Shown: piece after piece, positions 21,641 through 64,000 of the stretch
Numbering within the stretch: position 1 is the first letter of the stretch
Layout: each line of letters begins with the position of its first letter
NCBI GenBank assembly: GCA_944381205.1
Contig: CALWKG010000002.1
Span: forward strand, 20,464 to 84,463
DNA: 64,000 nucleotides
Direction of reading: 5' to 3'
Origin: an uncultured Clostridia bacterium
GTDB lineage: Bacteria; Bacillota; Clostridia; Christensenellales; UBA1242
The notes under the pieces: model-generated
Told to the model about the DNA's origin: nothing
What the model saw: only the letters and a program-made list of their open reading frames with translations
Databases searched by the model: none
Translations under genes and position numbers: made by a program

Positions 21641-21672
21641 CAAAATACTCCTTTGAAATATTTACGGGACGT

Positions 21673-33807: not shown

Positions 33808-34514
33808 AATTATTTTCCTTTTAAAGTGTCAAAAAAAATAATGACACTAATACAACAAATGTTACTGCATCACAAAAAAATAAACATAAAATATGTTTGT
33901 TATATTGATAGATATTTTTAGAAATACAAATAAAAATTTGCTAAAAAATCATTCAATAAATTTTGTATCAATTTTAATTTTTTTTGTCAAGTCATATTTT
34001 TAATTATTTGCTGAATTATCATTATGAATTGATTATTAAATAAATATGTTTTTTGTGAAAAAATTTTTATATATTTAGATGTGATTTATTAAGACTAATT
34101 GTGGTTGTGTAAAAAAAGTATTTTATTATCGAAAAAATACATTATCTTTTTCTTAGACTGTTTAGTCGATAAGTTAAGTCACATATAAACATATTGGCTT
34201 AAATTCTTGGTTGATTTAGTATAATTTATTCCGACCGTTTGGTCGAAGCGAGATATTTCTGGTAGTTTTTGTATAATTAAAATTTATAAAAAACTCTTTT
34301 TTAAAATTGAATATTTAAATATTTTTTGTCAAGCCGTTTATTGTTAAATCATTCAAGTGAAAAAACGGAAAATGTTTACAAATTGTTTATAACATACACG
34401 AGTATTAGGAACAAAAAATTAATAAAAAATAATTAAAAAAATTATCAAAATTTTTGCCGATTTTGTTTTGAAAGTTCCCCAATATATGTTAATATTTTAT
34501 ATATTTAAAGAACC

Positions 34515-34523
34515 TGCTATAAT
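34515..34523 (+). promoter_or_regulatory. candidate extended -10 (TGCTATAAT) for the giant gene
   Basis: TG at 34515-34516 and TATAAT at 34518-34523, about 52 nt before the ATG. The -35 is poor. Confidence 0.35.
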
Positions 34524-34574
34524 TTTAAAATATTTTTTCTTTTGTAGAGAGATAATACTAAGGAGGAAATCTTA

Positions 34575-37500
34575 ATGGCTGACGATAAAAATAATTTGAG
34601 CAATGGGGGAAATAATAACGAAGTGCAAGGTACAAATAAAAATGTAAATGCACAAGGTTCTAAGGTGCCTAATTCTCAATCGAGTGGAGTCCCGCCTATT
34701 AAAGCGGGTAGTGGTGTTCCGCCAATAAAGCCGAGTGGTGTTCCGCCAATAAAGTCCGGGAATGGAGTTCCTCCTATACATACTAGCAATGGAAATTCTA
34801 CAACTGGAACAACAAATGAGTCTCAAAAAGTTGAAAGTAGTAGTTCCTCCAATGTGAGTAATGATGCAAAAAAAGAAAAACAGTCTAACAACAAATCAAG
34901 AAAGAGTAAAAAAATTGCCCTAGTAGTTATTTTGTTGGCATTACTTGCTTGTGCGGGAATTGTTGCAGGGGTATTTTTAGCGCCTGCTGGCGAGTACACT
35001 GTAAGATTTGAAGGGTGGTATACTCCTGTTGAAAGTCAGGGGGTTAAGGGCGGTGAAGTTTTGAATTTACCGGTATTAGAAGATGTGGTTAACAATAAAG
35101 GCGAAGTTGTGCTTAAATTTGAAGGCTGGACTTACGAAGATGGTAGAGAATATATTCCTTCCGCAGTAAGAAGTAATTTTACCCTTTATGCAAAATATAC
35201 AGCAAAGGACATTACGTCTACTTTTGTAATGAAAAACATTTATAGTGAAAGGGAAAATCAGTATATTTATTTAACGTCTACTACTACAAAATTTTTTGAT
35301 GAAAGTATAGAGTTATCTAGTTTTGTAGATGAAATTTTAAATTTTGAAAATGAAGAATATGTTGGCTTTGCAAACGTAAAAGAGTACAATGTGCAAAACT
35401 TTACTATTGGGGCTCAAATAAACGATGTTTCTATTAATTCAATGGTTGATTTTATAGACAAGTATTTCAATCTTGCAACATTTACTGTTTTAGGGGAAGA
35501 AGAATCTTTTGGCGCACAAGATATAATGCTAACTCCTATGCAAGATAGTGTTATAGTGGTGGATTTTATTCCAAAACCAGATGGAATTACAATTATATAC
35601 GACGATAATTTGGAAAGTATAAAAAAGGATTATATAGGTAGTGAAGATTTTGACGAAAGCGATTTTAATTTACCTAGTCACGAAGTAAAAGTTGAATATG
35701 GTATGCAAAATTATGTTTTCCCAAGTTTTAGCGAGTATTGGGATATAAATGCTCCTAATCACGACTTTGTAGGTTGGTCTTTAATAGACCCAGAATTAGA
35801 TGAAGAAGGCAATATTACTAATGTAAATTTTGGGCAAGGTGATAGTTTTGTTAAAATTGGTGATAGTGTAAACATTGATAGGGATTTTTTAAATAATGGC
35901 ACGCAAATCACACTTTATGGTATTTGGAATCAAGGGACTACTAACCTTTTAATTTATACAGACTACAATGCTGATGCTTCTATTGATACAAGTGTTTCGA
36001 TAGGCGTGTCAAAGCCTGTTGGGGAGTGGGCAGAAGACGAGTTGAGCGTCTTACAAAAAGAGGGCTTTGCTTTGGTTGGTTTTAATACACAGCCTGATGG
36101 TAACGGGTTAAGACTTAATCTTGATACCGCTATTGAAGGTGGTATGGACTCTGAATATTATAACAAAGAACTTGGTTGTATTGTCTTGTATGCGGTTTAT
36201 AAAAAGATTGTAGAAGAAACATATATAGACATAAACGATGATTCTGTCGATGCTGTTTTGGTAGACGGAATGGTAAAAGATAGTGTGGCTTATGATTTGA
36301 AACTTGAAGAAGGCTATAAATATGAACAAACAGTAGAAATTACTTTTGACGAAATAAACAGAAGGTTTACAATTACAAATTTGCTGGTGGGGGCTGAAAT
36401 TAGTTTACCTAATTTTGATAGGTCAAATTATAGTCTTAACAGTTTTGTGATTAATGGTAATTCCTATGCAACGGGAGAAAATGGGTTAGTCTATACCATA
36501 CTTGAAAATGATATATTTAGGCAAACTGTTGAGTTAGATGCTAAGTGGAGGGGAATTGACTATGAGTTTAATATTATTGGCTATGAAGGTCAAAACAGAA
36601 TTATACCTATTGAGTATGGTAAGAGTTTAAGTTTGCAAATAGATTACGAGTTTTTAAATAACGAAGGAATTGTTGATATTGCCGTATATAATGCAGAGTC
36701 TATGGCGGAAATTGATAGTATTACTTTTAGAAGAATGGGGCACACATTTAACTATTTCGCTTTAAGTGGTGAGGAAATATCAAATAGTGAATTGTCACTT
36801 TTTGTGGTAAATAGGCTTTTTGATGAAATTGTGGGTGATTGGACTATTTGTGAATATGATGTCAGTTTTATATTGTCTGGCGGGCAATATTTAGATAGAG
36901 ATGATAATTTGGATTATACAAGCCCTTATACCATAAGTGGAGTTAAGTTTAATACCGATATTTCACTTATATCTAATTATGTAACCCGTGAAGGATATAA
37001 TTTGATGGGGTGGGTAACATCTGCCGATAGTGAAGACGTGGATTATAGTTATGATAAGACAACTCTTACAATAACAAATGATTTAGAATTATATGCTGTC
37101 TGGCAAAAGGCCAATAAGATAACTCTGTTACTAGACAATTTAAGAAGTGAAGAATATGTTATTTATACTGATAGAAATAACTATTTTGTGCTAACCGGTG
37201 AAGAATTTGATGGCTATAAATTTGATAGGTTTAGTGCATCACCTACCGGAGAAGTTTATGCAAAATATTTTGAAGCCAATAGTGACAGACAGTACTACGG
37301 ATTAGATACAGATATAGAGTTGTATGCAATGTGGGCAGAAGTCGTGTTTTCTGCCGGAGAAAATAGTGCTCAGTATGTACAAGGTGGGAATGTGCCGGAG
37401 TCATTTTATGTTACCAATGATGTTTTTAATGTAAATATACCAGAACAAAATTTTGTTACAACATCATATTACAAATTCGATAGTTGGTCTATGGGTGGCA

Positions 37501-55500: not shown

Positions 55501-58500
55501 GATATTATACTAATCCGTTCTATTTCAGTTATGAAGATGTGGATACGGGGGTGGCAATTAACGGAATTAGTGACTTAGGATTAAATAATATAGATAGCAA
55601 TGTAGTTTTACCAAAGCATACCTTGGTAGCCCAAGACGGAACTTTGGTCTATGGTAAAGATATTGTTGAAATCCGACAAAGTCAAAATGATATAGAAAAC
55701 ATATCTACTATTGACTTTAAGTATTCAAATATAAGTCAGTTATCTACTCTTGCATTTAACAAGTATACGTCGTTAACAGCACTAGTAAATGTTCCACAAA
55801 CAATTAATATAGACGCAGGTGCTTTAAGTGCGACAAATTTGGAAGAAGTTGTCTTTGAAGAAACCGACAATAATAGATATTTTGTTGATAATCGTGGGAA
55901 TGTTTATTTAATAAGTGGTGCAAATGTTACTCTTATTGCTATGCTTGTTAAAAATAGTGCAAATAAAATTTCGATTGGTGGGCAGGTCAGTAACGGAGAA
56001 AGTAGTTACTTAGTGTCTTCAATAGCAAAATATGCGTTATATGGTACTAGTTTTGAAGAAGTAGAAGTTCTTCCAGAAGTGGCTAGTATATCTGTTGGGG
56101 CATTTGCAAATATTAATTCAATTAAGTCAATCACATTGCCTTATCTAGGTACCGCTGTTGGTGAAAACGTAAAATTAAGTGACTTATTTGAAGTTATAAG
56201 TGCTTCTCTTGAAGAGATTACTATTACAGAAGAAAATACTGTTTATAATGAAGCCTTTAAAGACCAAACAAATATTAAAACAGTCATTTATCCACAAGGG
56301 ATAATCTCTATTGGAGTTGATGCGTTTAGTAATTGTACAAGTTTAATTTCTATATCAAAAGATGGTAGTGGTGTAGATTTATCGCAAACTACAAACATTA
56401 TGGATAGGGCTTTCTATAATTGTTATAGTTTAACTGATAGTATAAGTTTGCCTTTGGTAGTAAGTCTTGGAGATAGTTGCTTTACAAATGCAGGGATAAG
56501 CGAAGTAAAACTTTCTCGCAATGCACAGACGTTTGGTATGTCATCTAATGGGGAACTTTATACTGCATTTAATGGAGCAATTAATTTAACAAGCGCGTAT
56601 ATTTACTCTACTTATGCGTTTGAAGCAGTAATCAACAATACCGGTATTATTGGTGGAGAAAATAGACAAGGGACGATTTATACTGACGTTAATTTCTACT
56701 TAGTTCTCAATAATTTAAGTGATGCTTCGCTTAAAGAAAAGTATTTTTCCTATAATATTGTGGTGTACGACAGGGTTGAAATTGTAAGAAACAACGAAGT
56801 GGCAGGATACTTTAATACTTTGGAAGAAGCAGTGGAAAGTTCATTATCTAATGATGTTATTGTTATTAAATCAGATTTGGAAATCACTAATCCTATTGTT
56901 ATTGATAAGCCAATCACAATCTATGCTGGATTTACCGAAATAGACCCAAATGATGATGCCTTTATCTATGCAGATAGTAGGGTTGGGGTAACACTTAATG
57001 TTTCTGATGATATAGCAGGACAAGAGATTTTCACAATAAAAAATACAAACGTTACTATTGGAAAAATGATTTCATCTTCTTCTATTAGTGAAGGTTATAC
57101 AGACGGGGTTCTTAAAATAACAACAAATACTGATAGAAATGCAAGTTTGTTTGTTGTACAAAGTTCTAATCTTGTACTTGGTAAAGGTATTGAAATTTAT
57201 AACTTTAAGTCAAGCCTTACAGGAATGGTTAATGGTAGTGTTCTTAACATACAATCTGGTAGTTCTGTTACTATGGAAGGTGGAAAAATTTATAATAACT
57301 CAGCAAATTTGGGTGGTGCAATTTACGTAAATGATGGCTATTTTAGTGTGGAAAATGGTGTTATTGAAAACAATATTGCAACTTTTGGCGGTGCTATGTA
57401 TGTTACGGGACAGGGTAGAATAGAAATTTCCGAAAGTGAAGAAACTTTAATCAATAATAATACAGCAACTTTTGGTGGTGCAATATATGTGGCAACAACA
57501 ATCCTTGATGAAAGTTATGCGACATTAGTCTCTGGCGGAAATATTTTCAATAATACGGCGACTAGTGGTGCAGGTGTATATGTGTCACAAGGTGTGTTTA
57601 GTATTAATGGTTCTAGTGCAAGTATCTATGCAAATACAGCCAAAGATAGTGGTGGTGGGGTTTATGTGTCACAAGGTGCATTTATAATGCGCGCTGGTAA
57701 TATTGGACTTGAAACACAGGGTAATACGGCTTTAAATGGTGGCGGGGTTTATGTCGCATCAAATGGAACTATTTTGATGAATGATTCTCTTGCAAATATT
57801 TCCTACAATAGTGCATATTATGGTGGCAATTTGTACTTTGCTTCAAGTTTAACTCAAAAAGGTATGGAATCTACATTAAGTGCAGGGACAATTTCTTCTG
57901 CTAATAGCAGTATGATGATAGATGAAGAGTATTTGGGTGGTGGTATCTATGTTGAAAGTGGTAACCTTAATTTAAGTTCCAGCATTATCATTGCTCAAAA
58001 TAACGCAACATTAGGCGGTGGTGTGTATATTGAAGAAGGCAATTTAAGCATAATTAATATGGATTCTATTGGTGGAATTATTTCAAATAAAGCGCAGTCT
58101 GGCGGTGGTGTGTATATTTACGACGGCATTGTTACTATAAAAGCAGGCAACATATCTCAAAACACAGCAAGTTCTAATGGTGGCGGTGTATATGTATTTA
58201 GGGGAGAATTAAAATCTTCTACTAGCAGTACTGTGACTAACTTATCTCAAAATACAGCATCGAACGGCGCAGGTTTATACTTTGATACTTTGGCTATCGC
58301 CACAATAGATAACTTCAATATTATGCAGAACACCGCAAATTCAGAGCAAGAGGGTAACGGTAATGGCGGTGGAGTATATATTGCCGGAGGAACGATTACT
58401 ATAAAGAATAGTAGAATTAACGAAAATAGTGCTATAAATGGTGGTGGATTGTATATTCCTAATGTTCAGGCTGGTTTGCAATTTGCCATATATGATAACG

Positions 58501-61500
58501 CACAAATTTCTTCTAATAGCGCAACAAATAATGGCGGTGGGTTGTTTGTTGATAGAAGTTTAACTTTAACTCAGGGATTAATAAGTGCAAATAGGGCAAA
58601 TCTTGGCGGACAGATTTATGTTGGTGTAAATGCGTTGTTATCTCTTGATAGGGTAGAAGTCACAACGCAAGATTCTTCCGAAGAAAATTACACAATGGGT
58701 GTATATTTGGCACAAGGAGCTTCTAAAAAGGCATTTAGCATTAATCACAATACTAATATTCATAGGGCAGATACATTTGTTTATTTAAATCAAGGTAACA
58801 TAGTGTATGTTTTAGACAGTGCATCAACGGATAATCAGGTTAAATTGTATATTTCCACTCCAATAGGAAATAACCAAGTAAAAGTTGCCGAATTTGAAAG
58901 AAAAGATTATGCTAGTGCGGGTAGATTTTACGCTCCACTAACTGCATTTACTCAACTAGAAAAATCCATTTATGCAGTTGTGGCATCGGTTATTGCTATT
59001 GAAGATGAAGTAAATCTAGAAGAACAAAACTATGCTACTTTAAAAGACGCAGTGGAACTCTGTTTAAATAACAGTACTTTGATGATTATTAAAAATCAAG
59101 AAATTATTGGTAGCGACAGTAACAATAGCACAGTTGTTACAATTCCGAAAAACAAAACAATTACGATTATAAGTCAAGACGGCAGTATGATTACTCGTGG
59201 TGACGAAGGTGAAGGAATTTTATTTGGTGGTTACCTAATAACAGTATTTGGTACTCTTAATTTAAATAGTCAGTCTATAACTTCTACACCGCTTATAATA
59301 GATGGTAAAAATGCAACAAATTGTGCTTCGTTAATTTATGTTGGCAATACAGGTGTATTAAATATTTACGATAATGTACAAATTAAAAACAACATTGCTT
59401 CTGCGCAAGGAGCGGGTCTGTTTAATCCAAATATTAATGATAGGATTAGCAATCAAAACTCCGATTATGGCGGTGCGATATATGTATCTGGTGGTCAGGT
59501 TTATATGCGAGGTGGTTCTATATATGGAAACACAGCACGTAATGGTGGCGCAGTATATGTAGCAAGTGGTAGGTTTGAAATGATAGGTGGGAACATTGGC
59601 GGAACAACTGATGGTGAAGATAATACTGCTAATAATAATGGTGGCGGTGTATTTATAGAAAGTGGAAATCTTGTAATCCGTGGTGGTACAATAACTGGTA
59701 ATAAAGCAACAAATGGTGGCGGAATTTATGCAGGTGCTACCGCTAGTGTAAACATAAGCGGAGTCCAAGTAGGTGGAGTACAAATAATTTCAAATACAGC
59801 GACAGAAAATGGCGGGGGATTGTACTTTGCGTCTAGTAGTGGTACTAATGCTTACTATATGACCAATACCTATATTGCAAACAATACGGCTGTAAATGGT
59901 GGTGGTTTATATGTTTCGTCCGGTATTGTAGAGATAGGCAGTCTTAATGCTCAAACAGAAGACGAATTTAGGCAAAATACAGCCACAAATGGTGGTGCTA
60001 TATATGTTGCACTTGATGGGCAAATAGTCGTTTATAATGCTAATATCGTTGGCAATAGTGCAAGTGCTAATGGTGGTGGTGTGTATTTCAGTAATACAAG
60101 TAATAGAAATACGAGCCTTTTGTATAACACTACAATAGGTGTGTCAGGGCAAGGGAATAATGCTACTAATGGTGGTGGAATATACATTTCAAGTGGTATG
60201 TTAAGAGTGGAAGGTGAAAATACTGACGAAGAATTTACTTGCTTTGTTGCATATAATACTGCCGAAAGTGGTGGCGGAATTTATGTAGCACAAGACGGAT
60301 TTATAGAGATTAGGAATGTTGCTATAAGTTCTAACTCGGCAGATAACGGCGGTGGATTATATGTAAATACAACAAGAGAGGCTGATTTGACAGGTGCTCT
60401 TGTAAGTAACAATATCGCAAATAGTAATGGTGGCGGTATATATTCTTTGGCAGGAAATATAACATTTATTTCTGTTGCAGGAGGTCAAGACGACGGAATT
60501 TATAACAACTCAGCCATCAATGGCGCAGGTGTTTACGTCGCAGGCGGGTATGCGTTATTTGAGTCTGCAATTATACAAGATAATACAGCATCTGCTTATG
60601 GTGGTGGTATGTATGTAAATGGCGGTAATGTTGAAATGCTATCAAGTGCTGTTATGAACAATTTAATTACTGCAAATTTAAAAGATGGGCAGGGTATTCA
60701 CTATGCTGGCGGTAATGTAACGTTGTTTGGCGAAAATAACATAAGCAATCCGCTTGATAATTCAGAAGGAAACGAAAGAAGTGGTAGTATACTTATAGAA
60801 GGAGAAACTACTCTTGAAAATTCCTTTAAGATTTCAGGTTCAATATCGTTTATTTATGATATGTTCTATTTGGTAGAGAGAGATTCTTGGATTAATACTT
60901 ACGAAAATGATAGAGAAGCCTTAACTAATATGGCATTTACTCGTGGGCAAAATGCCAGTGCTACAATTTTGATAAAGGTAAATACTAATAAGTTGGAAGG
61001 TGACAGGGTAATAAAATTTACAGCAAGTAGTATTATTAAAAATAATTTATTAGAAGTTGTGCAAATTGATATTAATAGTCACAGAATGTTAGTACAAGGG
61101 GAAGGCGAAGATGCAGACTTTATTGTTCTAGAAAGACAGTTCTTCCAATTAGTTTTACCTAATAAAAACGACCCAGAAGTAGCAGAAATTGTGGCGGCTT
61201 TTGTAACCTTAACAGACGCAATAAATAGTCTTGAAGATTATAGACAATCACTTCCAGAAGGTTATGATAAAGGTTTCTTAATACTTGCAAACTTTGATGA
61301 AAATGATGCCATTTATATTAATTCTGCAATAAATAGTAACAAGCACTATGATTTAACAGATGAAGATTCTGACCTGTATAATAAAATTACTATTACTCCA
61401 ATTGTCCCGGGAGCCGTGCTCAATAGAGAAGAAAGTGTAAACGATATAGTAATGTTTAATACATTTAGTTATGATGAGATTTATATCGGATTTAATAGTG

Positions 61501-64000
61501 AGTTTGATAATTTTTATAGCCAACTTAGAATAGATAGAGAAACCTCAATGTTAACCTTCGAAGGTAGTGCAGATAGCCAGTCTAGTTTGATTACAAACTT
61601 TGGTAAGTTGACTCTTGGCAAAGGTGTAACTATTAGGAACGAGAACAGCAAAGGTGATTTTGGCGCAGTTACTAATTATGGTACATTAGTTATAGATGGA
61701 GCGAATCTTTACAATAATACGGCTATAAATGGTAGTGCTTTATATGTGGCAAGTGGCGAAGCAACAATTGAAAGCGGAGAATTTTATAATAATAGTGCTG
61801 TAAATGGTGGCGCAATATATGTAAATAGTAATGCAAAATTAACAATTAATGGTGGAAATATTGGTAGGTTTAACACCGGCACAGCAGAAGATTTAAGGAA
61901 TAAAGCCCAGTATGGTGGTGCAATATATGTTAGCGGTGGAGAACTCACACTAAATGGCGGTAATGTTTCTTATAATTATGCTGAAATCAATGGTGGTGGT
62001 ATATTTATAACATCAGGTTTGGATAATACGGGCAATACTTTTCGTGGTAAGATGGTTATGAATAGCGGACTGCTTGCAGGGGAAATGAGTTATGTTTCCC
62101 ATAACGAAGCAGGAGAATTTGGTGGTGGTATTTTTGTAGAAGATAATTTCTTACTAAATAAAGATTTTTATGATAGAGAAATAAATCTCATAATTAATGA
62201 TGGAAATATCGAAAACAATAAAGCATTAAATGGTGGTGGAGTGTATGTGGCAAACTTCCTCCTAGATGGTGACGATAAGCAGTATAATGGAGCGACTACT
62301 TTTGGTAGTGGAACAAATACAACTTACGTTTATGGTGTCGCAGTTGAGATAAATGGTGGTTCAATTTATAACAACAGTGTCCCTACTAATGATGAAGGTA
62401 TAAATGTAGGCTACGGTTATGGCGCCAATATGTATGTTCACGGTGGCGAAGTCGAAATGTACGACGGCTCTATACGTGGAAACGGGGCTAATACGTTCAT
62501 AGCAAAATTTGGTGGTGGCTTATATCTTAACGATGCAAAGTTTACTTTGTTTGGTGGTACTATTTCTGATAATGCTGTAACGCAAAAAGGAGCAGGTGTT
62601 TATGTAGATAAAACTTCTTACTTTACTTTACAATCTAGTAAAGAATCAGGTATTCTAAATAACTATGCTTATGTTAGCGGTGGCGGTATTTATCAAGAAA
62701 AAGGCGAAAGGAGTTTTGACGTAGGTAACGAAGGTGAGACAACTCTCATTAACTCATCAGGCAATATAGTACTTATATCTGGTACTATATCTGGTAATAG
62801 TATTAGCCCAATGGGTGCAGGTTTTGGACAGGGGATATACGTTGATGCTTCCGCACAAGAGTTTGTCTTGGGTAACAACGCAAATGAAGTATTATCTGTT
62901 GACCTTAATATAAAAGATTTGGTGTATTTAGCAAACGAAAGTATCATATTTATTAACGGCAAGTATAATCAAGAGTACACTCAAATAAACAATACAATTA
63001 CTATTGGTTCAAAATATATGGCAGATGATTATGTTCTAGAAGATGGTAGTAGAGCCATTATTGCCAGATATTCTAATAGTATCCCTAGTACAGATACAGT
63101 AAGTCTAGAAGCAAAATTATTCCGTGGTAGTGATTCTAATGGTGAAGCATATTGCTTTATTATGCACAATACTTATGATGTCGTTATTGGTAGAGCAAAT
63201 ATTGCAAAGCAAGTAGTAGGTGACCCATTTATTAGTTTCTACGAAACACTTGAAGGGGCATTAAATAGTGTTCATGATAGTAGAACGACTTACCTATATC
63301 TTTTGGTTACAGAGCAAGATGGATATAAACTAAAAATGGACTCTAACGCAGTGGTAAAAGGTGGTGTAAACATCACAGTCCTTTCGGGGTATACTAATGA
63401 AGAAAAGACCGAAGTTTACTCCAACGGATTAGACAACCCACTTAATGTCCATATTGGTAGTGTCAAAGGTGATATTATGACCTTTGAAGAAGATTCTACT
63501 GGTGTAGGGAATATCACATTTAGCAACATAAAAATCCTTGGTGATGGGCAGGAGTTAGAAAATGGTACAAGGCTATTTAATATAAAGGGTGCTAATTTTA
63601 CCTTGTCTGATGTTATTATAGATGGGATAAAAAGTAGTAGTACAAATGGCTCGTTGTTATATACTACAAAGGGAAATATCTTAATTAAAGGACAACTCGT
63701 TCCAAGAGATGGGACAACTGTAACAGTTGATGAAGAAGGCAACCAAGTCGGTGGAAAAGAAGGTATGCAAATTACAAATAGTTCTGGGGCTATGGGGCTT
63801 GTGTATGCCATAGGGACAAACACATACCTTACATTAGACGGCAAAGGTGTTTTGTTTAATTTGAATACTGCTTCTAGCGGTACTGTTGCAGTTGACGATG
63901 CAAACTTAGTTGTTAAAAATAATGTGGCATTTAAACAGAATTCGGCAAAATCTGGCGGTGCTTTATATCTTACCGGTGAACAAACTAATGTCGAGATACA
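34575..64000 (+). CDS. giant membrane-anchored mosaic surface protein (InlB B-repeat / Pmp-like beta-helix / BspA-LRR); at least 9,808 codons, 3' end outside window
   Basis: ATG 34575 lies 8 nt after AGGAGG (34561-34566), with an in-frame TAG at 34545 upstream. Hand translation at more than 10 positions from 34.6 kb to 63.96 kb stays in the same frame with no stop. The track lists no + strand ORF in this frame, which fits a frame that never closes inside the window. Every track ORF in this span is short and either antisense or out of frame. Confidence 0.93.
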   Translation, partial: MADDKNNLSNGGNNNEVQGTNKNVNAQGSKVPNSQSSGVPPIKAGSGVPPIKPSGVPPIKSGNGVPPIHTSNGNSTTGTTNESQKVESSSSSNVSNDAKKEKQSNNKSRKSKKIALVVILLALLACAGIVAGVFLAPAGEYTVRFEGWYTPVESQGVKGGEVLNLPVLEDVVNNKGEVVLKFEGWTYEDGREYIPSAVRSNFTLYAKYTAKDITSTFVMKNIYSERENQYIYLTSTTTKFFDESIELSSFVDEILNFENEEYVGFANVKEYNVQNFTIGAQINDVSINSMVDFIDKYFNLATFTVLGEEESFGAQDIMLTPMQDSVIVVDFIPKPDGITIIYDDNLESIKKDYIGSEDFDESDFNLPSHEVKVEYGMQNYVFPSFSEYWDINAPNHDFVGWSLIDPELDEEGNITNVNFGQGDSFVKIGDSVNIDRDFLNNGTQITLYGIWNQGTTNLLIYTDYNADASIDTSVSIGVSKPVGEWAEDELSVLQKEGFALVGFNTQPDGNGLRLNLDTAIEGGMDSEYYNKELGCIVLYAVYKKIVEETYIDINDDSVDAVLVDGMVKDSVAYDLKLEEGYKYEQTVEITFDEINRRFTITNLLVGAEISLPNFDRSNYSLNSFVINGNSYATGENGLVYTILENDIFRQTVELDAKWRGIDYEFNIIGYEGQNRIIPIEYGKSLSLQIDYEFLNNEGIVDIAVYNAESMAEIDSITFRRMGHTFNYFALSGEEISNSELSLFVVNRLFDEIVGDWTICEYDVSFILSGGQYLDRDDNLDYTSPYTISGVKFNTDISLISNYVTREGYNLMGWVTSADSEDVDYSYDKTTLTITNDLELYAVWQKANKITLLLDNLRSEEYVIYTDRNNYFVLTGEEFDGYKFDRFSASPTGEVYAKYFEANSDRQYYGLDTDIELYAMWAEVVFSAGENSAQYVQGGNVPESFYVTNDVFNVNIPEQNFVTTSYYKFDSWSMGGNIYTDTFDVNIDIVEETTYTPIQIEFEANFNYKDILVRVYSEEKGEQSTMISGYASFDEDRRVFTLSSYRFPSKTNHQIDYFYDEDSAVFVSSEASENKFIVFDIPDPDKEKMEYVEGSHFVYSIYTKWKYTLTFESNEGEIYQNAYRYVGATYTAEDSANVPLDSISQEITYTLPYGGETVGDVEGLGFVVDKRDFAYWTSEDVSETNQLIGGYTVTITKDSTFTAVWEGTNYLINIEDRDGVVVNNLVIEDISYGEEYKLFGGDNAIVNLGETRRQVTDEGNPNPYYKEVIRFVYEYTVLDGEEAGQMYRTELALDSVINFVTIEGGEVGGFIKEEDLEDDAITIYVEWAEVEYDIRVNLGSASWNVTQGEDLSKDFGAELRLDSATNEYYIMYTTTYNEVSSTGFNLAYLGLSLPRYRVNGFTGKSGDVVVTKTLDENQNLTGFVYTYEGHCSEFDKLDKTLTINWVEILTLSINFNGGSAGEEVQTTFVLDINNDNATFDVPEYNVTRNNSTFIGYYFGVENDYFKTNTQYNQYSETDGYVIDIDSLGLFSAGEQVIISRQNIIDYGNSTANSITIYAVYKAKGQFITDISENISGFYTPISETMVASTEKSFSVEFIVGVEIGLADLEKYHFVLENSEIYVQSGWEESNRVSVSQKIISQNFSLYAVWKQSEIQIYLKNYDGSNFETGVLNFSELSGRTINLNTKYLELANTGKLPELFGYNFVGWSSTLSGNLVNSASDKENLFDAINLYTIPATSSSVYAVYEKSDVKITYEPNAESGVVYDKITDSGLKFGDTYIVKDNINYTRRYFDLAGFALTPDSSEAIDGSLILNNDLKQYFTTTTENGRVIYSLNLYAVWTRQVKEITINLNGGTFYNNGIDGSLSAFYDATTSDNIQALVINSSNVIIRAYVGIEDTYNLLVPTGDYFARDGYVFEKIIVEGSDGETDLTGGNIPCRDTNSLTIIVNWLEVINVRIYANRNNNDEEFITLPIVYGNILDFDAGQKQIYNYNTQETYEIEFAKDYYLLSSFNSARNAGVTYDGNINLTWDSFINSNGYINIYCQWLGEEYAIVINANDSEIETIPETVINLDKENNDFRYGQSIRLGDYYSNTTRADGDSGYVFKYIEDEFGNQYDIATSEFNPEILGVALQDTYVFNVVWDTREFEVTYNFGAGTYTDEEGIEHSSITQTHKYKEEVQLLAVNDENTKHSEDKGEGRVHNLYHVSGFTSENIDLSGNSFIMPSEDITLNVVWESSEIKILIDATGSLFDSENVKGEGHYEGVEIENVSYEGENNTTLILSGLKMGDSVDFAKLPLPVNEGYTPGYYFLSGYVPGEEYDPTTDSYQVLKVDDVIDINDSILSQEILNLDDYYDEQRQAFVLYFSTYWSADSYMIMYMPMVPKIENGYSVDASSVISGMESLYKQVTFGSATTLAGPMTLNGWEQIGWTLSLDYEHAFDDGNVFYYGSELGNDTNNQVDEIARVYEFELDENGQVKLYPIWQQKQYMITFRDSEQNDNILVNNVGYSNYDVSYLYDSTDTLSNLLSKNNVTFKDYSFKDVYSIPTTLKYVSSDGTEMVIDFEDTLKFCLAPSGFINGDDFNSDSVVIEIVYEEVSYEINFVLQGGILEYNSSKLASNYEENTGYTLVGEVLYSDLVEGFNVDDFFDVQEDLITKEGENVIYTFAGWALKDDTTKLVILKGVDDFKFVVDGDVEEILKPNENGEFDYVFEFYAIYNDKIVVIDSGDGYVINPNQETIINEQVWIAQEFNIYTYAYLGEIIDITVDLYRLSARENYHVAVATEDEKYTVQDNDEANYKYVPWEGNTRYIVLDSATDGQTLVVDEGFVKDNFEILTQDGNYYGYLPSSASEGNYAFIYDKITDESSFDLYDSNISYEEDTQFYQLLDNRALLIKTRYGEVINDISKVSIENISQEVTFRGFGDEYGVYFNSPLNVRGNDGEIIYLKAIYETNIIVSFDLNGGIYNSNNFIEARISAKDEGGKYIMIPRTSSDAAGIGPYYWGYDFLGWSTFKNYEEYVDNGSNPDSLIVPEENEKKQYIDDLVQEGTYEITLYAIWSPRETDFIFENRTSPNDEIALTGNNAVKFTITVKYGESFNLPTIGYGDYGEIINNWTSTTNPNNVFIGFMMYDGKNVAVNYEQNQEYILRSDRDFKSYKEDATRENTPQEIRVYTRWAQPDVTVKIYLGQGSTTTYKYFGDNNKIEKSGNWVYLKDYTYNGANYPIPNLDDFYLENKYASALYYSSDFSEINRVPIENGSLLVDEAHTSGGVLSLYIKWEDADSYIRNFYGNFNKYFGTLNNALLNVSEISLTEASSLSSYEAAIKARKSVEVVLLNTRSTFEISQEIKIGDSNGQNGLDVSISLDINDVKSSKTITRNNSYTGVVFNLGKNSSLTFNSLISYRLILSGNNSSADSFIKANGADIVLNNGVEITRMTTDASFVSGENISGAIEIIDGSISLYGNTLTDNRIISNIAKDVYGGVIRAINSVVNIDSCSFSGNSVNSNNSAYGGAISVENGTLNITNTNFSNNVSHTLSADEGFAGYGGAIYVFASTFNLRMKDGYLFTQNEAEIGGAIAISGAEGQIGHAEFDLPMMKYNYAVRNGGAIFVEYSDIELRNVDIEQNGILNASSKEYTLNGGAIYGGVKSNILITINFENLGSVEGSNNIFGYGQGVISSNVALNGGAIYSEGSSLRIEGTTFMGNNYSELISVESGGKGGTIYAKGSEDDVNEVQLVLTTITFSRAMYGGGIYIDEGANISSETTKELYDDLKRREEAYENGEEDAPIVRIDDYIEIGSVIKQNSARYGGGIYYNSSNEESSLEFMSIALNSEDPFADNNNGLASQIGGGVYIAGGQISFNQSTYIYQNKAISGGGVYVGASQEQSGDTEGGTDEGNGEITTLVEEEPTITAKAVFDGVWFLYELVQVIGNSGNIEEKLDELEVYLNGNPVPEYNSQKKIVETELPKLIQALDNLIQSEGISNEHTQRLNNIKTNLQGYMQNGTYSKLEDEDFENARDLLDETLEILAEIESQEIGSETAEKVSAVRSQINTYTTELMLLKASIFYDSYKEMLEDVGVGGDESVDSYGNIANNGGAVYVGKGGYANFKSGRNGATKMNGKGYGEHVYNEGVVEYGEFNAETSPDSNDGRVYQIYNSGTFDIYGDGRIKAMPRVMIEKNEDGTAYDYITISNETYDSIYRFDILFTDTAYLMGTPVVLFETESAFNYYLARVETLPSDYALFNVVDPTVILVPDEKQHALVLRYRSYEIRFYDISEDSDSVITPTANLFTYDDYATEALIDELNSYNIKREGYDFIGWAYYVLDEGGIPSTYDDDIAVEYTGEKGIEVADLVGKEIAGQMFFPIENLLEIDNGMFRLPAHHIYLYAMWKPQIYTIYYEYDTVYDGNTSDGYKIHGASIKDNELLPLSSQVQYNSTYYIINEQDINRVQLVNYEAITVVSKDTQTNIITRISDSLKNEYDVHYDEVTQKYYYDTSMYRYYIESETSAYRVYTTGDEALDKNMFIYENAQDLYPTSVKLSADGEPIAVKQDVTGKYVLIDGVRYDVRAMFRPDNYIFDHIEISGSKYYSLEDAFPISKDNPFALSDTVNREVYITLYFKRMSMGVSFMLDENSTEPMFTLDRYVGANIVLPEDNIISYDDVEYVFYKEGCVLTGFVDENGSKYDLGSTYVVEETTSGLHTLTAVWQDATCYIKGALRDSFGVKYNKYYLTLEDALEDINSGSLFGLSEYELYLMDTNKEDTANSVFELNETLVVNSNLLIMTDNSSNSDFEIVYSDSFDVNSPMFRVQSGKLTLGTSSRKVTINGDRERGTTSAVIVEKDGTLQLSSNSRVINNVVMDSSTNYGGALTVYGYARVIGAQFYNNQSYNGGAIYIAEKGNVVLEADTSNNSAILFAPNDQNSSGQGSKLGNVATNNGGAIYVSSGGALSVSGTKEITISNGTATNNGGAIYLASGFGEVSLNNIVFSENSATNGGAVYIDGNYTLDKNIEFLNNTAGSAGGAVYATANLTVSSSGVAFRSNSAMKGGAIASYEYLSITDGQFIGNRAEGGEGGAIYAENQVFISGNTIIGNSSNGNSANFGGAISVLNGSLTISGENVNISYNTAFFGGAIYAQMSSVSIDENTTISDNKTDTSSQDETGRIVGGGAVYLSSSSLYLKGQLSYNFAVNGGAVFAEGVSNIVLDGKASIYENESTISGAGLFVSNNSSLEILSDDVTITQNISSQNGGGIFYSSDVNSVLTNGHIYGNEINSNAEIAQGKEIYLSDGKSLTLNGIIVGEEDSVRPNVIDEYDINVMSNSTLYNYGSNINGAVYVEGIKDSSKRGALFIRGNAYIRDIFLKQYSYVVVEGLLTSNKIIDEGQTININFLYFMEDDPLKTPNETKIVRFNNISELNQNSKAFYLVREEGSALEGYCINNVIEDNYAWFVLREIAKVMYIDPNGGVIELNGQTAGAGEENEILAIDLPSYDSMSFLDEIIGHKVGYELSNTFLDRDSKKYYTSSEALPIYILTLIAQWSPKEYEVQVIRNGDNGTTTEQFGMKYEDSTSLPKASLSYNTFAGWRVGYMENGELVMSKNVVLGANSSFSLKDISTKYGQEGKDIFEKIDSWNGVVYLVSEFTPVMVEVIIHSNGGERSEISGGEDGDIVKEEFGDGWRYLVPQSQMYLNYNDFVEDFTRQDATGDYGYAVNGLFTGNDGIFEEAYEIMYNFDNPSIPIYNITSLELYCSWQRVVAYIRKTLSDDDAGNRIIYYDDINKAVNDLTINDELVIVARNINVSKTIEFKVDANVFIRGDVSINRQKGFNGYLLSISSQVVFVLEGDGSLVINGNSNERNDDESPNMNYAGLSTDGAIKIASSGTLKLDEFVTIKNNYSKTNGAGINSQGNLVVNGAKFNNNKTVLNGGAIYAEGGLTLQNATITNSSANANGGAIYVESGVISIENSIISNNTAKNGAGLYYNSSIASTISGGEFTNNVTANAGYGGGIYIAKDAGALILKGMIKISSNNATYGGGIYIDGTRSGSAEYHLSLDGVEITNNTATYGGGIQVGDFADALNRQVVVFNSGTITNNTATYGGGVGIIRGTFRINDGEISLNNSTNGSEIYVSYMSNIAFGTLEILGGAVGKDGSNSTILVNGKNSSLSVSGEYQINSKVQLLNEAKINVTDVISSRSSVIVLETMKNTANGLSENLPPKGESLVVVSFAYLVDVQFDKFDIVEDLKNRGQNSYRLAVDDSDIVLCEAIFELTINANDGDISVSDGLVYEQVDDTIILDVYYTTVLNEILNQVSAYRENKFFLGYYMIVEDEEVEIFDEMPYSDLEIFVKWSMDYYTLTIDINDTRSESGIKAEFDESLANFEEGESYDETNRKININVYVDSEGTTYGQDALDRITALLSRENYTIYGFGTSQMTTSAVGDSFVMPEANTTLYVLWQGINYTVTYVNNSPNSSDIEQTVERTYVFDNQVMVADDSTFAVAGYTLSGWSLERNGELLYQAGQNAYNLIEDGIGYTLYAVWTPIKYEVIYNSNMAGNVEGEIENDLFTYGVNETLTSERYTTIGYTQVGWSLSPDTDSANTDEYYSFEGSLNVISLTTESEVVMYAVWKANSYIVNIHQNGVEGSSVVSQVSFEYNVEETLPLASTLFGISNNYFAGWSLNPYDDATSATYDFEDGAVVFNLTDSGEIDLYPIWIAKQVIVHSNTGDEQSFAFYITANNTVEINKQDLASMVSLPGFEIGYLSTNAIVDSGTKVTFDGYDVAYILMDNYDSLDLYIAWSAIQYEFKFVVGGSEHSEYISQIKSTKPLDSGNTYSEYSDNHKITMYDSLLPTMEIYGWSADPSQATIDFNLGEEVDLDKEFFTAFDGKQDLSLTTITLYGVLSPNYNITYDLNTDDNIIIGSSTDITGINNASTGEQSINSPVSLIYKDYHGNVWEIATVDYESSEARYAYFLGWSLDSETTEPEYVPNTEVEDRFSGDITLYAVWGYYTNPFYFSYEDVDTGVAINGISDLGLNNIDSNVVLPKHTLVAQDGTLVYGKDIVEIRQSQNDIENISTIDFKYSNISQLSTLAFNKYTSLTALVNVPQTINIDAGALSATNLEEVVFEETDNNRYFVDNRGNVYLISGANVTLIAMLVKNSANKISIGGQVSNGESSYLVSSIAKYALYGTSFEEVEVLPEVASISVGAFANINSIKSITLPYLGTAVGENVKLSDLFEVISASLEEITITEENTVYNEAFKDQTNIKTVIYPQGIISIGVDAFSNCTSLISISKDGSGVDLSQTTNIMDRAFYNCYSLTDSISLPLVVSLGDSCFTNAGISEVKLSRNAQTFGMSSNGELYTAFNGAINLTSAYIYSTYAFEAVINNTGIIGGENRQGTIYTDVNFYLVLNNLSDASLKEKYFSYNIVVYDRVEIVRNNEVAGYFNTLEEAVESSLSNDVIVIKSDLEITNPIVIDKPITIYAGFTEIDPNDDAFIYADSRVGVTLNVSDDIAGQEIFTIKNTNVTIGKMISSSSISEGYTDGVLKITTNTDRNASLFVVQSSNLVLGKGIEIYNFKSSLTGMVNGSVLNIQSGSSVTMEGGKIYNNSANLGGAIYVNDGYFSVENGVIENNIATFGGAMYVTGQGRIEISESEETLINNNTATFGGAIYVATTILDESYATLVSGGNIFNNTATSGAGVYVSQGVFSINGSSASIYANTAKDSGGGVYVSQGAFIMRAGNIGLETQGNTALNGGGVYVASNGTILMNDSLANISYNSAYYGGNLYFASSLTQKGMESTLSAGTISSANSSMMIDEEYLGGGIYVESGNLNLSSSIIIAQNNATLGGGVYIEEGNLSIINMDSIGGIISNKAQSGGGVYIYDGIVTIKAGNISQNTASSNGGGVYVFRGELKSSTSSTVTNLSQNTASNGAGLYFDTLAIATIDNFNIMQNTANSEQEGNGNGGGVYIAGGTITIKNSRINENSAINGGGLYIPNVQAGLQFAIYDNAQISSNSATNNGGGLFVDRSLTLTQGLISANRANLGGQIYVGVNALLSLDRVEVTTQDSSEENYTMGVYLAQGASKKAFSINHNTNIHRADTFVYLNQGNIVYVLDSASTDNQVKLYISTPIGNNQVKVAEFERKDYASAGRFYAPLTAFTQLEKSIYAVVASVIAIEDEVNLEEQNYATLKDAVELCLNNSTLMIIKNQEIIGSDSNNSTVVTIPKNKTITIISQDGSMITRGDEGEGILFGGYLITVFGTLNLNSQSITSTPLIIDGKNATNCASLIYVGNTGVLNIYDNVQIKNNIASAQGAGLFNPNINDRISNQNSDYGGAIYVSGGQVYMRGGSIYGNTARNGGAVYVASGRFEMIGGNIGGTTDGEDNTANNNGGGVFIESGNLVIRGGTITGNKATNGGGIYAGATASVNISGVQVGGVQIISNTATENGGGLYFASSSGTNAYYMTNTYIANNTAVNGGGLYVSSGIVEIGSLNAQTEDEFRQNTATNGGAIYVALDGQIVVYNANIVGNSASANGGGVYFSNTSNRNTSLLYNTTIGVSGQGNNATNGGGIYISSGMLRVEGENTDEEFTCFVAYNTAESGGGIYVAQDGFIEIRNVAISSNSADNGGGLYVNTTREADLTGALVSNNIANSNGGGIYSLAGNITFISVAGGQDDGIYNNSAINGAGVYVAGGYALFESAIIQDNTASAYGGGMYVNGGNVEMLSSAVMNNLITANLKDGQGIHYAGGNVTLFGENNISNPLDNSEGNERSGSILIEGETTLENSFKISGSISFIYDMFYLVERDSWINTYENDREALTNMAFTRGQNASATILIKVNTNKLEGDRVIKFTASSIIKNNLLEVVQIDINSHRMLVQGEGEDADFIVLERQFFQLVLPNKNDPEVAEIVAAFVTLTDAINSLEDYRQSLPEGYDKGFLILANFDENDAIYINSAINSNKHYDLTDEDSDLYNKITITPIVPGAVLNREESVNDIVMFNTFSYDEIYIGFNSEFDNFYSQLRIDRETSMLTFEGSADSQSSLITNFGKLTLGKGVTIRNENSKGDFGAVTNYGTLVIDGANLYNNTAINGSALYVASGEATIESGEFYNNSAVNGGAIYVNSNAKLTINGGNIGRFNTGTAEDLRNKAQYGGAIYVSGGELTLNGGNVSYNYAEINGGGIFITSGLDNTGNTFRGKMVMNSGLLAGEMSYVSHNEAGEFGGGIFVEDNFLLNKDFYDREINLIINDGNIENNKALNGGGVYVANFLLDGDDKQYNGATTFGSGTNTTYVYGVAVEINGGSIYNNSVPTNDEGINVGYGYGANMYVHGGEVEMYDGSIRGNGANTFIAKFGGGLYLNDAKFTLFGGTISDNAVTQKGAGVYVDKTSYFTLQSSKESGILNNYAYVSGGGIYQEKGERSFDVGNEGETTLINSSGNIVLISGTISGNSISPMGAGFGQGIYVDASAQEFVLGNNANEVLSVDLNIKDLVYLANESIIFINGKYNQEYTQINNTITIGSKYMADDYVLEDGSRAIIARYSNSIPSTDTVSLEAKLFRGSDSNGEAYCFIMHNTYDVVIGRANIAKQVVGDPFISFYETLEGALNSVHDSRTTYLYLLVTEQDGYKLKMDSNAVVKGGVNITVLSGYTNEEKTEVYSNGLDNPLNVHIGSVKGDIMTFEEDSTGVGNITFSNIKILGDGQELENGTRLFNIKGANFTLSDVIIDGIKSSSTNGSLLYTTKGNILIKGQLVPRDGTTVTVDEEGNQVGGKEGMQITNSSGAMGLVYAIGTNTYLTLDGKGVLFNLNTASSGTVAVDDANLVVKNNVAFKQNSAKSGGALYLTGEQTNVEI
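34683..34781 (+). repeat. four tandem SGVPPIK-type repeats in the cytoplasmic N-terminal tail
   Basis: SGVPPIKAG / SGVPPIKP / SGVPPIKSG / NGVPPIH. Confidence 0.85.
34914..34982 (+). other. single TM helix (signal anchor) of the giant protein
   Basis: IALVVILLALLACAGIVAGVFLA (aa 114-136), preceded by the basic stretch KSRKSKK. Confidence 0.8.
34989..44390 (+). repeat. array 1 of Listeria-Bacteroides (Flg_new / InlB B-repeat) type domains, about 26 units
   Basis: A 90-100 codon unit recurs and ends in aromatic-GW...LYA[VI]W type motifs. Examples: FEGWTYEDG..TLYAKY, FVGWSL..TLYGIW, LELYAVWQK, IELYAMWAE, FSLYAVWKQ, LNLYAVWTR, ITLYAIWSP. Confidence 0.75.
44400..46250 (+). repeat. beta-helix module 1 (cap KYFGTLNNALLNV, then about 12 GGxIY coils)
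   Basis: YGGAISVENG..FSNN, YGGAIYVF, IGGAIAI, NGGAIFVE, NGGAIYGG, NGGAIYSE, YGGGIYID, SGGGVYVG. These show the GGAI / FxxN spacing of Pmp-type repeats. Confidence 0.75.
46290..46790 (+). other. Gly-poor, Glu/Leu-rich predicted helical insert
   Basis: WFLYELVQVIGNSGNIEEKLDELEVYL...LPKLIQALDNLIQSEG...ENARDLLDETLEILAEIESQEIGSETAEKVSAVRSQINTYTTELMLLKA. Confidence 0.5.
47330..48660 (+). repeat. array 2 of Flg_new-type domains (about 4 units)
   Basis: YEIRFYD..GYDFIGWAYY..IYLYAMWKP; ITLYFKR; CVLTGFVDENG..TLTAVWQD. Confidence 0.65.
48690..50880 (+). repeat. beta-helix module 2 (cap YYLTLEDALEDI)
   Basis: YGGALTVY, NGGAIYIA, NGGAIYVS, NGGAIYLA, NGGAVYID, AGGAVYAT, KGGAIAS, FGGAIS, FGGAIYAQ, NGGAVFAE, NGGGIFYS. 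Confidence 0.75.
50880..51770 (+). repeat. array 3 of Flg_new-type domains (about 3 units)
   Basis: MYIDPNGG..GYELSN..ILTLIAQWSP; FAGWRVGY; LELYCSWQR. Confidence 0.6.
51780..53280 (+). repeat. beta-helix module 3 (cap IIYYDDINKAVNDL)
   Basis: NGGAIYAEG, NGGAIYVES, NGAGLYYN, YGGGIYIA, YGGGIYID, YGGGIQVG, YGGGVGII. Confidence 0.7.
53280..55500 (+). repeat. array 4 of Flg_new-type domains (about 8 units, the most canonical)
   Basis: YTVTYVNN..GYTLSGWSLERNG..YTLYAVWTP; YEVIYNSN..GYTQVGWSLSPD..VVMYAVWKA; YFAGWSLNP..IDLYPIWIA; LDLYIAWSA; ITLYAVWGY. Confidence 0.8.
55690..56560 (+). repeat. BspA-type leucine-rich repeat block (LRR_5-like)
   Basis: IDFKYSNISQLSTLAFNKYTSLTALVNVPQTINIDAGALSATNLEEVVFE ... 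VIYPQGIISIGVDAFSNCTSLISIS ... IMDRAFYNCYSLTDSISLPLVVSLGDSCFTNAGISEVKL. Confidence 0.7.
56770..58980 (+). repeat. beta-helix module 4 (cap GYFNTLEEAVESS)
   Basis: About 16 coils, including LGGAIYVN, FGGAMYVT, FGGAIYVA, SGAGVYVS, SGGGVYVS, NGGGVYVA, LGGGIYVE, LGGGVYIE, SGGGVYIY, NGGGVYVF, NGGGLYIP, NGGGLFVD. Confidence 0.75.
58990..61140 (+). repeat. beta-helix module 5 (cap NYATLKDAVELC)
   Basis: YGGAIYVSGG, NGGAVYVASG, NGGGVFIESG, NGGGIYAGA, NGGGLYFAS, NGGGLYVSSG, NGGAIYVAL, NGGGVYFSN, NGGGIYISSG, SGGGIYVAQ, NGGGLYVNT, YGGGMYVNGG. Confidence 0.75.
61150..63190 (+). repeat. beta-helix module 6 (cap AAFVTLTDAINSL)
   Basis: NGSALYVASG, NGGAIYVNS, YGGAIYVSGG, NGGGIFITSG, FGGGIFVED, NGGGVYVAN, FGGGLYLND, KGAGVYVDK, SGGGIYQEK. 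Confidence 0.7.
63200..64000 (+). repeat. beta-helix module 7, truncated by the window end (cap ISFYETLEGALNSV)
   Basis: The cap motif sits near 63240. SGGALYLTGEQTNVEI is the last readable peptide, and the frame is still open. Confidence 0.65.

Follow-up and report, generated by a model that had tools for sequence, protein, structure and literature searches.

The 64,000-nucleotide stretch of contig CALWKG010000002.1 analysed here (the window) comes from an uncultured, low-GC, Christensenella-like gut Clostridia bacterium, and its last 29 kb are taken up by one open reading frame (ORF) that runs off the window edge. According to our results, this giant ORF is a single genuine gene of more than 30,000 bp and neither an assembly nor an annotation artefact. 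We think it likely that its product, 11,466 residues long, is a giant adhesin or surface fibre that is exported by Sec and anchored at its N-terminus.

The ATG at 34575-34577 opens a frame of 9,808 codons (34575-63998, + strand) with no stop up to the window edge, while a TAG at 34545-34547 lies upstream in the same frame. The initial annotation had described this start, with its AGGAGG, the TAG and the 9,808 open codons, and both the sequence and its translation bear it out. The gene and its ribosome-binding site are placed as follows:

34561-34566, + strand: Shine-Dalgarno sequence AGGAGG, 8 nt 5' of the ATG, read from the sequence.
34575-64000, + strand: giant coding sequence, codons 1-9,808 of 11,466, cut by the window edge; identified by the absence of stops, gene calls, the ratio of nonsynonymous to synonymous substitution rates (dN/dS) and codon usage.

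This is the longest open stretch among the six frames of the window, the runners-up measuring 871 and 734 codons. Stops number between 450 and 1,376 in the other five frames across these 29.4 kb, and those frames stay open for 6-21 codons on average and for 198 at most. Even at the lowest stop rate of a rival frame (about 4.6% per codon), the probability of 9,808 stop-free codons is about e^-460. Because the other frames are so full of stops, a chance origin of the giant frame is excluded. The ORF listing shows no + strand entry across this region since it omits ORFs running off the source, as the initial annotation had supposed when it proposed that only ORFs closed by a stop were listed. Relative synonymous codon usage of the giant gene correlates with that of eight neighbouring genes (r = 0.93), and GC content falls from the first to the third codon position (GC1 > GC2 > GC3) as it does in the neighbours. 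Horizontal acquisition was considered and rejected, as codon usage and GC fit those neighbours. We also observed that GC skew is uniformly and strongly positive along the giant gene (0.21-0.32 over 34001-64000, and -0.10 to 0.28 elsewhere in the window), which probably reflects a coding strand rich in Gly, Glu, Asp and Val codons, composition and a replication-strand effect being kept together here.

Public copies of the locus were located via the protein of the neighbouring ATP-binding cassette (ABC) exporter, which has an exact match on contigs from four samples and close variants on five more contigs. The start of the giant gene is present on 8 such contigs, all 8 with the same ATGGCTGACGAT opening, and gene callers picked the identical start at every one of the eight loci checked (L001-L006, L008 and L009). 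Four contigs are 100% identical to the window over the share that they hold of the first 9.2 kb (3.2-9.2 kb), and two other strain lineages show 98.8% nucleotide identity over the 5' 9.2 kb, with no indel and no stop. The product is recorded at exactly 11,466 residues in five assemblies, and by the recorded coordinates the gene is internal to all five contigs:

Logan ERR4096626, ERR10610644 and ERR10610591: 11,466-residue gene calls.
ENA ERZ16268255 (214-kb scaffold) and ERZ16268200 (197-kb scaffold): 11,466-residue gene calls.

The length, identical across three strain lineages, is that of the recorded gene calls; the sequence read covers residues 1-9,808. Because the product has 11,466 residues, the window contains 85.5% of a 34.4-kb gene, counted from its 5' end, and the stop codon, which the initial annotation had suggested looking for by extending the contig, is expected about 4,975 nt past the edge. 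The gene is under purifying selection over the sampled part: dN/dS between strains is 0.16-0.19 (first 3,078 codons), and the strain differences are concentrated at third codon positions (for instance 16, 24 and 66 at positions 1, 2 and 3). The corresponding dN/dS values are 0.09-0.10 in the ABC exporter and about 0.015 in Tex. DNA self-comparison of the giant ORF revealed one 38-bp pair as its sole repeat, and the internal repeats of the protein are at most 38% identical. Since the DNA is nearly free of repeats and those of the protein are so diverged, there is no substrate for repeat collapse or chimeric joins.

The gene is also found beyond the strain level. Among GTDB representative genomes, the nearest relatives of the ABC exporter belong to uncultured Clostridia or 'Christensenella sp.' metagenome-assembled genomes, and more distant ones come mostly from rumen and hindgut metagenomes. 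Five orthologs of the giant protein, all colinear with the window protein, accompany exporters of the following identities:

L047: exporter 87% identity, giant protein 51%.
L010: exporter 84% identity, giant protein 41%.
L011: exporter 84% identity, giant protein 57%.
L012 and L013: exporter 68% identity, giant protein 27%.

In four of these close relatives (L047, L010, L012 and L013) a frame of about 3,000 codons, in the same position and divergent orientation, runs off the fetched locus; in L011 it measures only 863 codons and is cut by the contig end. Over residues 1 to 3,000, conservation is colinear and evenly spread, without any evident hot-spot. Across species the gene thus retains its position and yet diverges much faster than its neighbours, as is typical of surface proteins. 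An exhaustive search of representative proteins with residues 141-1340 as the query provided some 15 further colinear relatives, at 26-36% identity and up to 6,502 residues long; two relatives that were examined turned out to be parts of giant genes that are cut or split. At one of the loci, the distant ortholog L073 (ENA ERZ808288, 2157-24609, + strand, about 27% identity, 3x coverage), 4150, 1980 and at least 3215 residues are encoded by three ORFs that follow and overlap one another. Its split is due either to low-coverage frameshift errors or to decay of this copy, and L073 shows that relatives also exceed 9,000 residues.

The notion that the giant ORF arose by faulty assembly or is a pseudogene in decay (a chimera of several smaller paralogues, or a frame open in one record only) could draw on the short-read metagenome assemblies that make up all the data and on the broken L073, but it is hardly credible and essentially refuted by the independent contigs agreeing on the 5' end, by the five assemblies of equal product length (the 197- and 214-kb scaffolds included), by the absence of a DNA-level internal repeat for mis-joins, by the dN/dS values and by the frame remaining open in five other species. 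On the same grounds, the claim of the initial annotation that this is one very long real gene and not a chimera is upheld.

Similarity searches gave a less complete picture of how widespread such genes are. The last 500 residues of the window protein had no match in GTDB representative genomes or JGI metagenomes, and a word-index search with the last 1,200 residues retrieved matches of at most 32% identity over partial stretches, all in proteins of about 2,000 residues or shorter. The giant protein itself is absent from the exhaustive representative protein search library, and none of the truncated prefixes called on L003 and L004 had an exact counterpart in the protein collection. We observed that, although both protein search libraries lack the giant protein, the gene-position index nevertheless holds the 11,466-residue calls; the longest match in either library has the 6,502 residues given above. 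Very long proteins thus seem under-represented in these libraries, so that similarity searches understate how common such genes are.

The N-terminus gives the first indication of where the protein resides. Two elements precede the bulk of the chain:

34575-34904, + strand: low-complexity tail rich in N, S, G and P (residues 1-110), with four GVPPI(K/H) repeats followed by the K/R cluster KSRKSKK; predicted to be cytoplasmic.
34905-34991, + strand: hydrophobic segment (residues ~111-139) from a Kyte-Doolittle scan; putative uncleaved N-in signal anchor.

The hydrophobic segment, with a hydrophobic length of about 22-29 residues, is the only transmembrane-like segment in the 9,808 residues. As the K/R cluster stands before the helix, the positive-inside rule points to an N-in signal anchor, and we infer this topology together with export through Sec and the signal recognition particle. 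The same plan is seen in 12 colinear relatives, which have a disordered N/Q/P-rich tail of 35-320 residues, 3-6 basic residues and a single hydrophobic helix some 22-24 residues long; in these relatives, the hydrophobic segments inspected show no clear AxA site or lipobox. The segment is therefore probably not a cleavable N-terminal signal peptide, as it begins only at residue ~111, behind the long tail, and its counterparts inspected in relatives lack an evident cleavage site. An anchor of the lipoprotein type at Cys126 (LLAC) was also considered and rejected, given that hydrophobic sequence continues past this residue and that P0110 and others lack the motif. As a separate observation, the motif G(V/T/A)PPI(K/V/H), of which the N-terminal tail has 3-5 copies, is kept in the three closest species (L047, L010 and L011) and occurs in no other retrieved protein; in more distant relatives, N/Q/P-rich repeats (NGQRP-like) replace it.

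In the protein as a whole, G, N, S, I, V, T and Y are abundant and K, R, P and C scarce, and the chain is acidic (pI about 4.2). The part in the window amounts to 1,076 kDa, which extrapolates to about 1.26 MDa at full length. Leucine-rich repeats (LRR), Listeria-Bacteroides repeats and repeats of the type found in polymorphic membrane proteins (PMP) were identified in it, and models were built with AlphaFold2 (AF2):

34995-38594, + strand: string of beta-grasp, InlB B-repeat-type domains, mostly beta (residues 141-1340), predicted by AF2 and Foldseek.
36855-37109, + strand: Listeria-Bacteroides repeat (Flg_new / TIGR02543; residues 761-845), PF09479 at 26.2 bits over residues 761-842 (cutoff 27) and TIGR02543 at 21.8 bits (cutoff 20.95).
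44883-46193, + strand: PMP-type repeat block 1 (residues 3437-3873), from a jackhmmer self-profile, a Chlam_PMP match and a GG[AG][ILVM] cluster.
49047-50408, + strand: PMP-type repeat block 2 (residues 4825-5278), from the self-profile and Chlam_PMP at 22.1 and 34.1 bits (cutoff 20.6) in segments 5 and 6.
52122-52952, + strand: PMP-type repeat block 3 (residues 5850-6126), from the self-profile and TIGR01376 POMP_repeat at 53.5 bits (cutoff 15) in segment 6, best at residues 5892-5914.
53871-54056, + strand: Listeria-Bacteroides repeat (residues 6433-6494), PF09479 at 28.6 bits (cutoff 27).
55905-56489, + strand: BspA-type LRR block (LRR_5, PF13306; residues 7111-7305), 92.8 bits (cutoff 27.7) over 4 stretches; PDB 4gt6 at E = 2.9e-9.
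57156-58820, + strand: PMP-type repeat block 4 (residues 7528-8082), from the self-profile and a profile match.
59283-60842, + strand: PMP-type repeat block 5 (residues 8237-8756), from the self-profile and Chlam_PMP at 33 bits; AF2 partly confident.
61548-62987, + strand: PMP-type repeat block 6 (residues 8992-9471), from the self-profile; predicted local distance difference test (pLDDT) of AF2 80-92 at residues ~8998-9148, with short regular strands.
63582-63998, + strand: PMP-type repeat block 7 (residues 9670-9808 and beyond), from the self-profile and a profile match; runs off the window.

The AF2 model of residues 141-1340, built with 16 relatives, has a mean pLDDT of 78.6 and a predicted template modelling score (pTM) of 0.35, values whose combination suggests well-folded small beta domains without a fixed mutual arrangement. 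Foldseek matched this model to the InlB B-repeat structure 2y5p (probability 1.0, target TM-score 0.75, root-mean-square deviation 2.9 Å) and also to chains of ubiquitin-like domains and to YwfG, SraP and PitA, surface proteins of Gram-positive bacteria. As modelled, this region consists of beta-grasp domains in a row, the majority so diverged that Pfam does not detect them. Further Flg_new copies were found with a self-built profile at residues 6456-6684 and 6932-6975, and at least 12 Flg_new-like copies are scattered across residues 493-6975.

Evidence for the PMP-type blocks comes from the PF02415 Chlam_PMP matches (34.1, 33.0, 22.1 and 20.7 bits, cutoff 20.6), whose best stretches in block 2 are residues 4967-4983 and 5045-5062, and from 65 GG[AG][ILVM] motifs, which are confined to these blocks; the consensus of the relatives shows the coil motif GGxIxxNxAxxxGGGxY. 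A model of residues 8609-9808 reached a mean pLDDT of 50.5 and was confident only inside the PMP blocks. Its best Foldseek match had E = 0.012, which is not significant, and nearly all the targets listed, likewise non-significant, were right-handed beta-helix proteins such as PL6 lyases, antigen 43, pertactin, Vag8, tailspikes and a serine-rich repeat protein (SRRP). From these motifs and models, the blocks are probably beta-helical. When the whole frame was searched against PDB sequences, the LRR block alone matched, and the profile searches of the 9,808 residues gave no further family at the gathering cutoff and no enzyme family among the weak matches. Flg_new, Chlam_PMP/POMP_repeat and LRR_5, three of the families that the initial annotation had suggested, were thus recovered by profile searches, and the fourth, Beta_helix, was not.

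Taking the anchor and the ectodomain together, we consider it most likely that the single signal-anchor helix inserts the giant protein co-translationally via Sec, which would leave the disordered Pro-rich tail of about 110 residues in the cytoplasm and expose over 11,000 residues on the outside. The ectodomain is a non-repetitive mosaic of InlB-B-repeat-like beta-grasp strings, about seven PMP-type blocks and one BspA-type LRR block, and would form a flexible fibre in which beads-on-a-string beta-grasp segments alternate with rigid, probably beta-helical blocks. From this geometry, which we infer, the fibre would be hundreds of nanometres long and reach past the cell wall, where it most likely serves in adhesion; mucus, glycans of host or dietary origin, plant particles and other microbes are possible targets. 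Adhesion is the most likely function because all three module types are ligand-binding or adhesive in characterized members, as in InlB, BspA and the Chlamydia Pmps.

Several points weigh against such a fibre. In this strain the hydrophobic segment is followed by APA-G, a possible signal peptidase site, which is absent from the segments inspected in the relatives. The beta-helical fold of the PMP blocks is drawn from sequence motifs and non-significant Foldseek matches; Pfam Beta_helix (PF13229) had no match at E <= 0.1 in the giant protein, only on weak relatives, and the spacers between PMP blocks fall below a pLDDT of 50 in the model of residues 8609-9808. Roughly half of the ectodomain is without a family match. 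Residues 9,809-11,466, the last 1,658, lie beyond the sequence read and could hold a C-terminal anchor, an enzyme or a toxin domain. Finally, the giant protein is known here from its sequence alone, and adhesion is deduced solely from the roles that its domain families play in other organisms.

An adhesive fibre has to be weighed against two other functions. The protein could be a structural component of the envelope, such as a spacer, a sheath or a scaffold resembling a surface layer (S-layer), that organizes the cell surface or keeps cells together in aggregates, without specific ligand binding. Uniform colinear conservation over the first 3,000 residues, purifying selection across the whole sampled part, a conserved chromosomal position among housekeeping genes and an acidic, beta-rich and Cys-poor composition like that of many wall-associated proteins would all suit such a role. 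We consider it unlikely, however, as profile searches of the 9,808 residues found no SLH, CWB2 or other wall-binding or S-layer family, the BspA LRR, InlB B-repeat and PMP modules are binding modules in characterized members, and a single-copy protein of 1.26 MDa would be costly as a bulk lattice component.

The fibre could also be mainly a delivery stalk, with a toxin, nuclease or lytic enzyme in its C-terminal 1,658 residues serving contact-dependent antagonism or predation, as in CdiA, Rhs or MafB-like proteins. The position of these residues beyond the sequence read leaves room for such a domain, the protein diverges quickly between species, and CdiA/FHA-type toxins typically possess long beta-helical stalks. 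A link to cell-wall degradation has been drawn for giant proteins elsewhere (10.1101/2023.11.21.568195). A stalk of this kind is nonetheless quite unlikely: no toxin, peptidase or hydrolase family matched at E <= 0.1 in the 9,808 residues, the constant length of 11,466 residues in three strain lineages argues against the swapping of C-terminal modules typical of polymorphic toxins, and an N-terminal membrane anchor would be unusual for a released or delivered toxin.

Starting from the anchored adhesin or surface fibre that we favour, it is tempting to go further and propose that the protein is the founding member of a family of clade-specific, N-anchored megadalton fibres of uncultured Christensenella-like gut Clostridia, whose conserved, disordered Pro-rich tail would couple to an intracellular partner (for signalling or assisted export) and whose C-terminus would carry an effector or binding head. 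This idea is quite improbable in our view. If it were true, the fibre would be a new type of contact apparatus and not a passive adhesin, and its distal head could serve co-aggregation with methanogens or attachment to host mucus.

Upstream, the giant gene is separated by an AT-rich spacer from a divergent ABC exporter, an arrangement that the initial annotation had described and that we found as stated:

33808-34574, no strand assigned: spacer of 767 bp, 19.9% GC, between the divergent ABC exporter and the giant gene.
30177-32102 and 32050-33807, - strand: heterodimeric ABC exporter, two overlapping ABC_membrane + ABC_tran half-transporter genes from family matches, divergent from the giant gene.

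The spacer presumably holds the promoters of both the exporter and the giant gene. Its best + strand promoter-like site, TTTATA-16-TATAAT with an extended TG (34496-34523), is a candidate only, as the 11 promoter-like sites found in the spacer are not above the 8.4 expected by chance, and the promoter position is accordingly tentative. A functional link between the giant gene and the ABC exporter was considered and rejected, because general synteny appears to be kept and more distant exporter homologs have no giant neighbour. In L012 and L013 a frame of 743-748 residues lies beside the exporter, at the place held by Tex in the window; with this Tex-sized frame also keeping its place, and with those distant homologs, the exporter is probably a mere neighbour.

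The other genes of the window are those of an ordinary chromosome, among them ArgRS, Tex, dUTPase, phosphoglucomutase, alanine racemase and glycosyltransferases, and Rfam and tRNA scans of the window gave no match. Four observations on these genes are recorded here in their own right. A Cys-rich ORF of 50 residues (MKRIKTLETRKLVGETLKTSGCGECQTSCQSACKTSCGVANQQCEKCKAE; 6723-6875, + strand) lies directly upstream of a radical SAM/SPASM gene (7169-8551, + strand), and we take the two as a candidate SCIFF-type ranthipeptide precursor and its maturase, a system known from Clostridia. An ORF with a C-terminal HNH endonuclease domain (14236-15051, - strand) sits beside argS in the lowest-GC stretch of the window (26.6%, 14-16 kb) and may be a mobile or defence-related insertion. 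The gene of a YfhO-family membrane protein (870 residues) overlaps a family-2 glycosyltransferase gene by 11 nt (8736-12267, - strand), a pair that resembles the CsbB/YfhO-type systems of teichoic acid glycosylation; together with the GT8 gene at 830-1825, it could be relevant to surface decoration. Lastly, the gene of an SPFH/Band-7 protein whose C-terminus bears a double zinc ribbon (21673-22737, - strand) is flanked in this - strand region by genes for a zinc-ribbon protein (20615-21643) and a 146-residue ORF without family match (22754-23194), and the group is syntenic in the strain variants.

Bacterial proteins above 10,000 residues are rare and are usually fragmented or mis-annotated in metagenome assemblies. 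The giant gene is a clean and multiply confirmed example of this size class. Its 34 kb are unique sequence, unlike near-identical tandem repeats; its exact length is kept across strains, and its place is kept across species while it diverges about as fast as surface antigens. A single gene this large is a big genomic investment, and its product is a plausible major determinant of attachment to host, food particles or partner microbes in an uncultured gut lineage. The half of the ectodomain that has no family is a source of new beta-rich domains. Current concepts are unchanged by these findings, which extend a known class of giant adhesin-like proteins and are not conceptually surprising.

The closest known counterparts come from West-Roberts et al. 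2023 (bioRxiv 10.1101/2023.11.21.568195), who termed genes above 30 kb 'large' and described, from mammalian gut metagenomes, Clostridia proteins of 10,000-30,000 residues with Listeria-Bacteroides repeats and LRRs, which they read as binding proteins. The initial annotation was right that a bacterial gene of more than 29 kb is rare, and similar gut Clostridia proteins had already been described in that work. Our protein has in common with them the class, the animal gut source, a length above 10,000 residues, both repeat types and the presumed binding to host or prey surfaces. Their paper gives no detailed architecture for these Clostridia proteins. YG repeats, dockerins and ShdA-like domains were not found in our protein, which has PMP-type blocks and one predicted anchor helix at its N-terminus and whose sequence hardly repeats itself. 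More generally, a survey of proteins of at least 5,000 residues found the bacterial ones to be mainly nonribosomal peptide synthetase and polyketide synthase enzymes and surface or attachment proteins (PMC11573180).

With the Chlamydia Pmps (PF02415 / TIGR01376) and autotransporters such as pertactin and antigen 43, all of them adhesins, the giant protein shares GGA(I/L/V)-type coil repeats above the family cutoffs and a weak fold resemblance to right-handed beta-helix passengers. Pmps, however, are Gram-negative type V autotransporters of about 1,000-1,800 residues with a C-terminal beta-barrel, whereas here seven interspersed blocks belong to an N-anchored Clostridia protein of more than 11,000 residues; no C-terminal beta-barrel translocator occurs within the 9,808 residues read, nor would one be expected in an organism of this class. 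BspA-type LRR proteins (PF13306; PDB 4gt6 and 4fs7; Tannerella forsythia BspA) are gut or oral surface proteins that likewise carry an LRR_5 block, but they measure 400-1,100 residues and have Ig-like domains or a type IX secretion system C-terminus, and in the giant protein the single LRR block makes up under 2%. The Listeria InlB B-repeat and Flg_new proteins share the beta-grasp domain that fits 2y5p, with at least 12 copies detectable by sequence in our protein. The cleaved N-terminal signal peptide, cap-LRR-IR unit and GW or LPXTG anchoring of internalins were not found in the 9,808 residues. In the same part, which stops short of the C-terminus, there is no LP.[TSA]G motif. Ser makes up 9% of residues and there are no serine-rich repeat tracts, so the protein does not resemble the serine-rich repeat glycoproteins of accessory Sec systems, and no SecA2 or SecY2 was matched among the upstream ORFs of at least 100 residues in the window.

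Staphylococcus aureus Ebh (about 10,000 residues) and Giant1-5 of Apilactobacillus kunkeei are further Bacillota proteins which, like this one, reach the megadalton scale, extend outside the cell in an elongated form and contain beta-solenoid and repeat modules. In Ebh, tandem repeats of high similarity make up the chain, and the membrane anchor is at the C-terminus. Giant1-5, of 3,000-8,000 residues, carry a Sec signal peptide that is cleaved, rods of alpha-helical repeats and, at the C-terminus, DUF5776/SH3b domains (PMC12863079). In contrast to both, the protein described here is N-anchored, almost all beta and of unique sequence.

In summary, the giant protein does not strictly belong to the Pmp autotransporters, the internalins or the LPXTG adhesins, and its gene fits the known class of giant adhesin-like proteins. 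Within that class it is set apart by its predicted N-terminal signal anchor with a Pro-rich tail, by its nearly non-repetitive sequence and by the presence of PMP-type blocks in a Clostridia-class organism.

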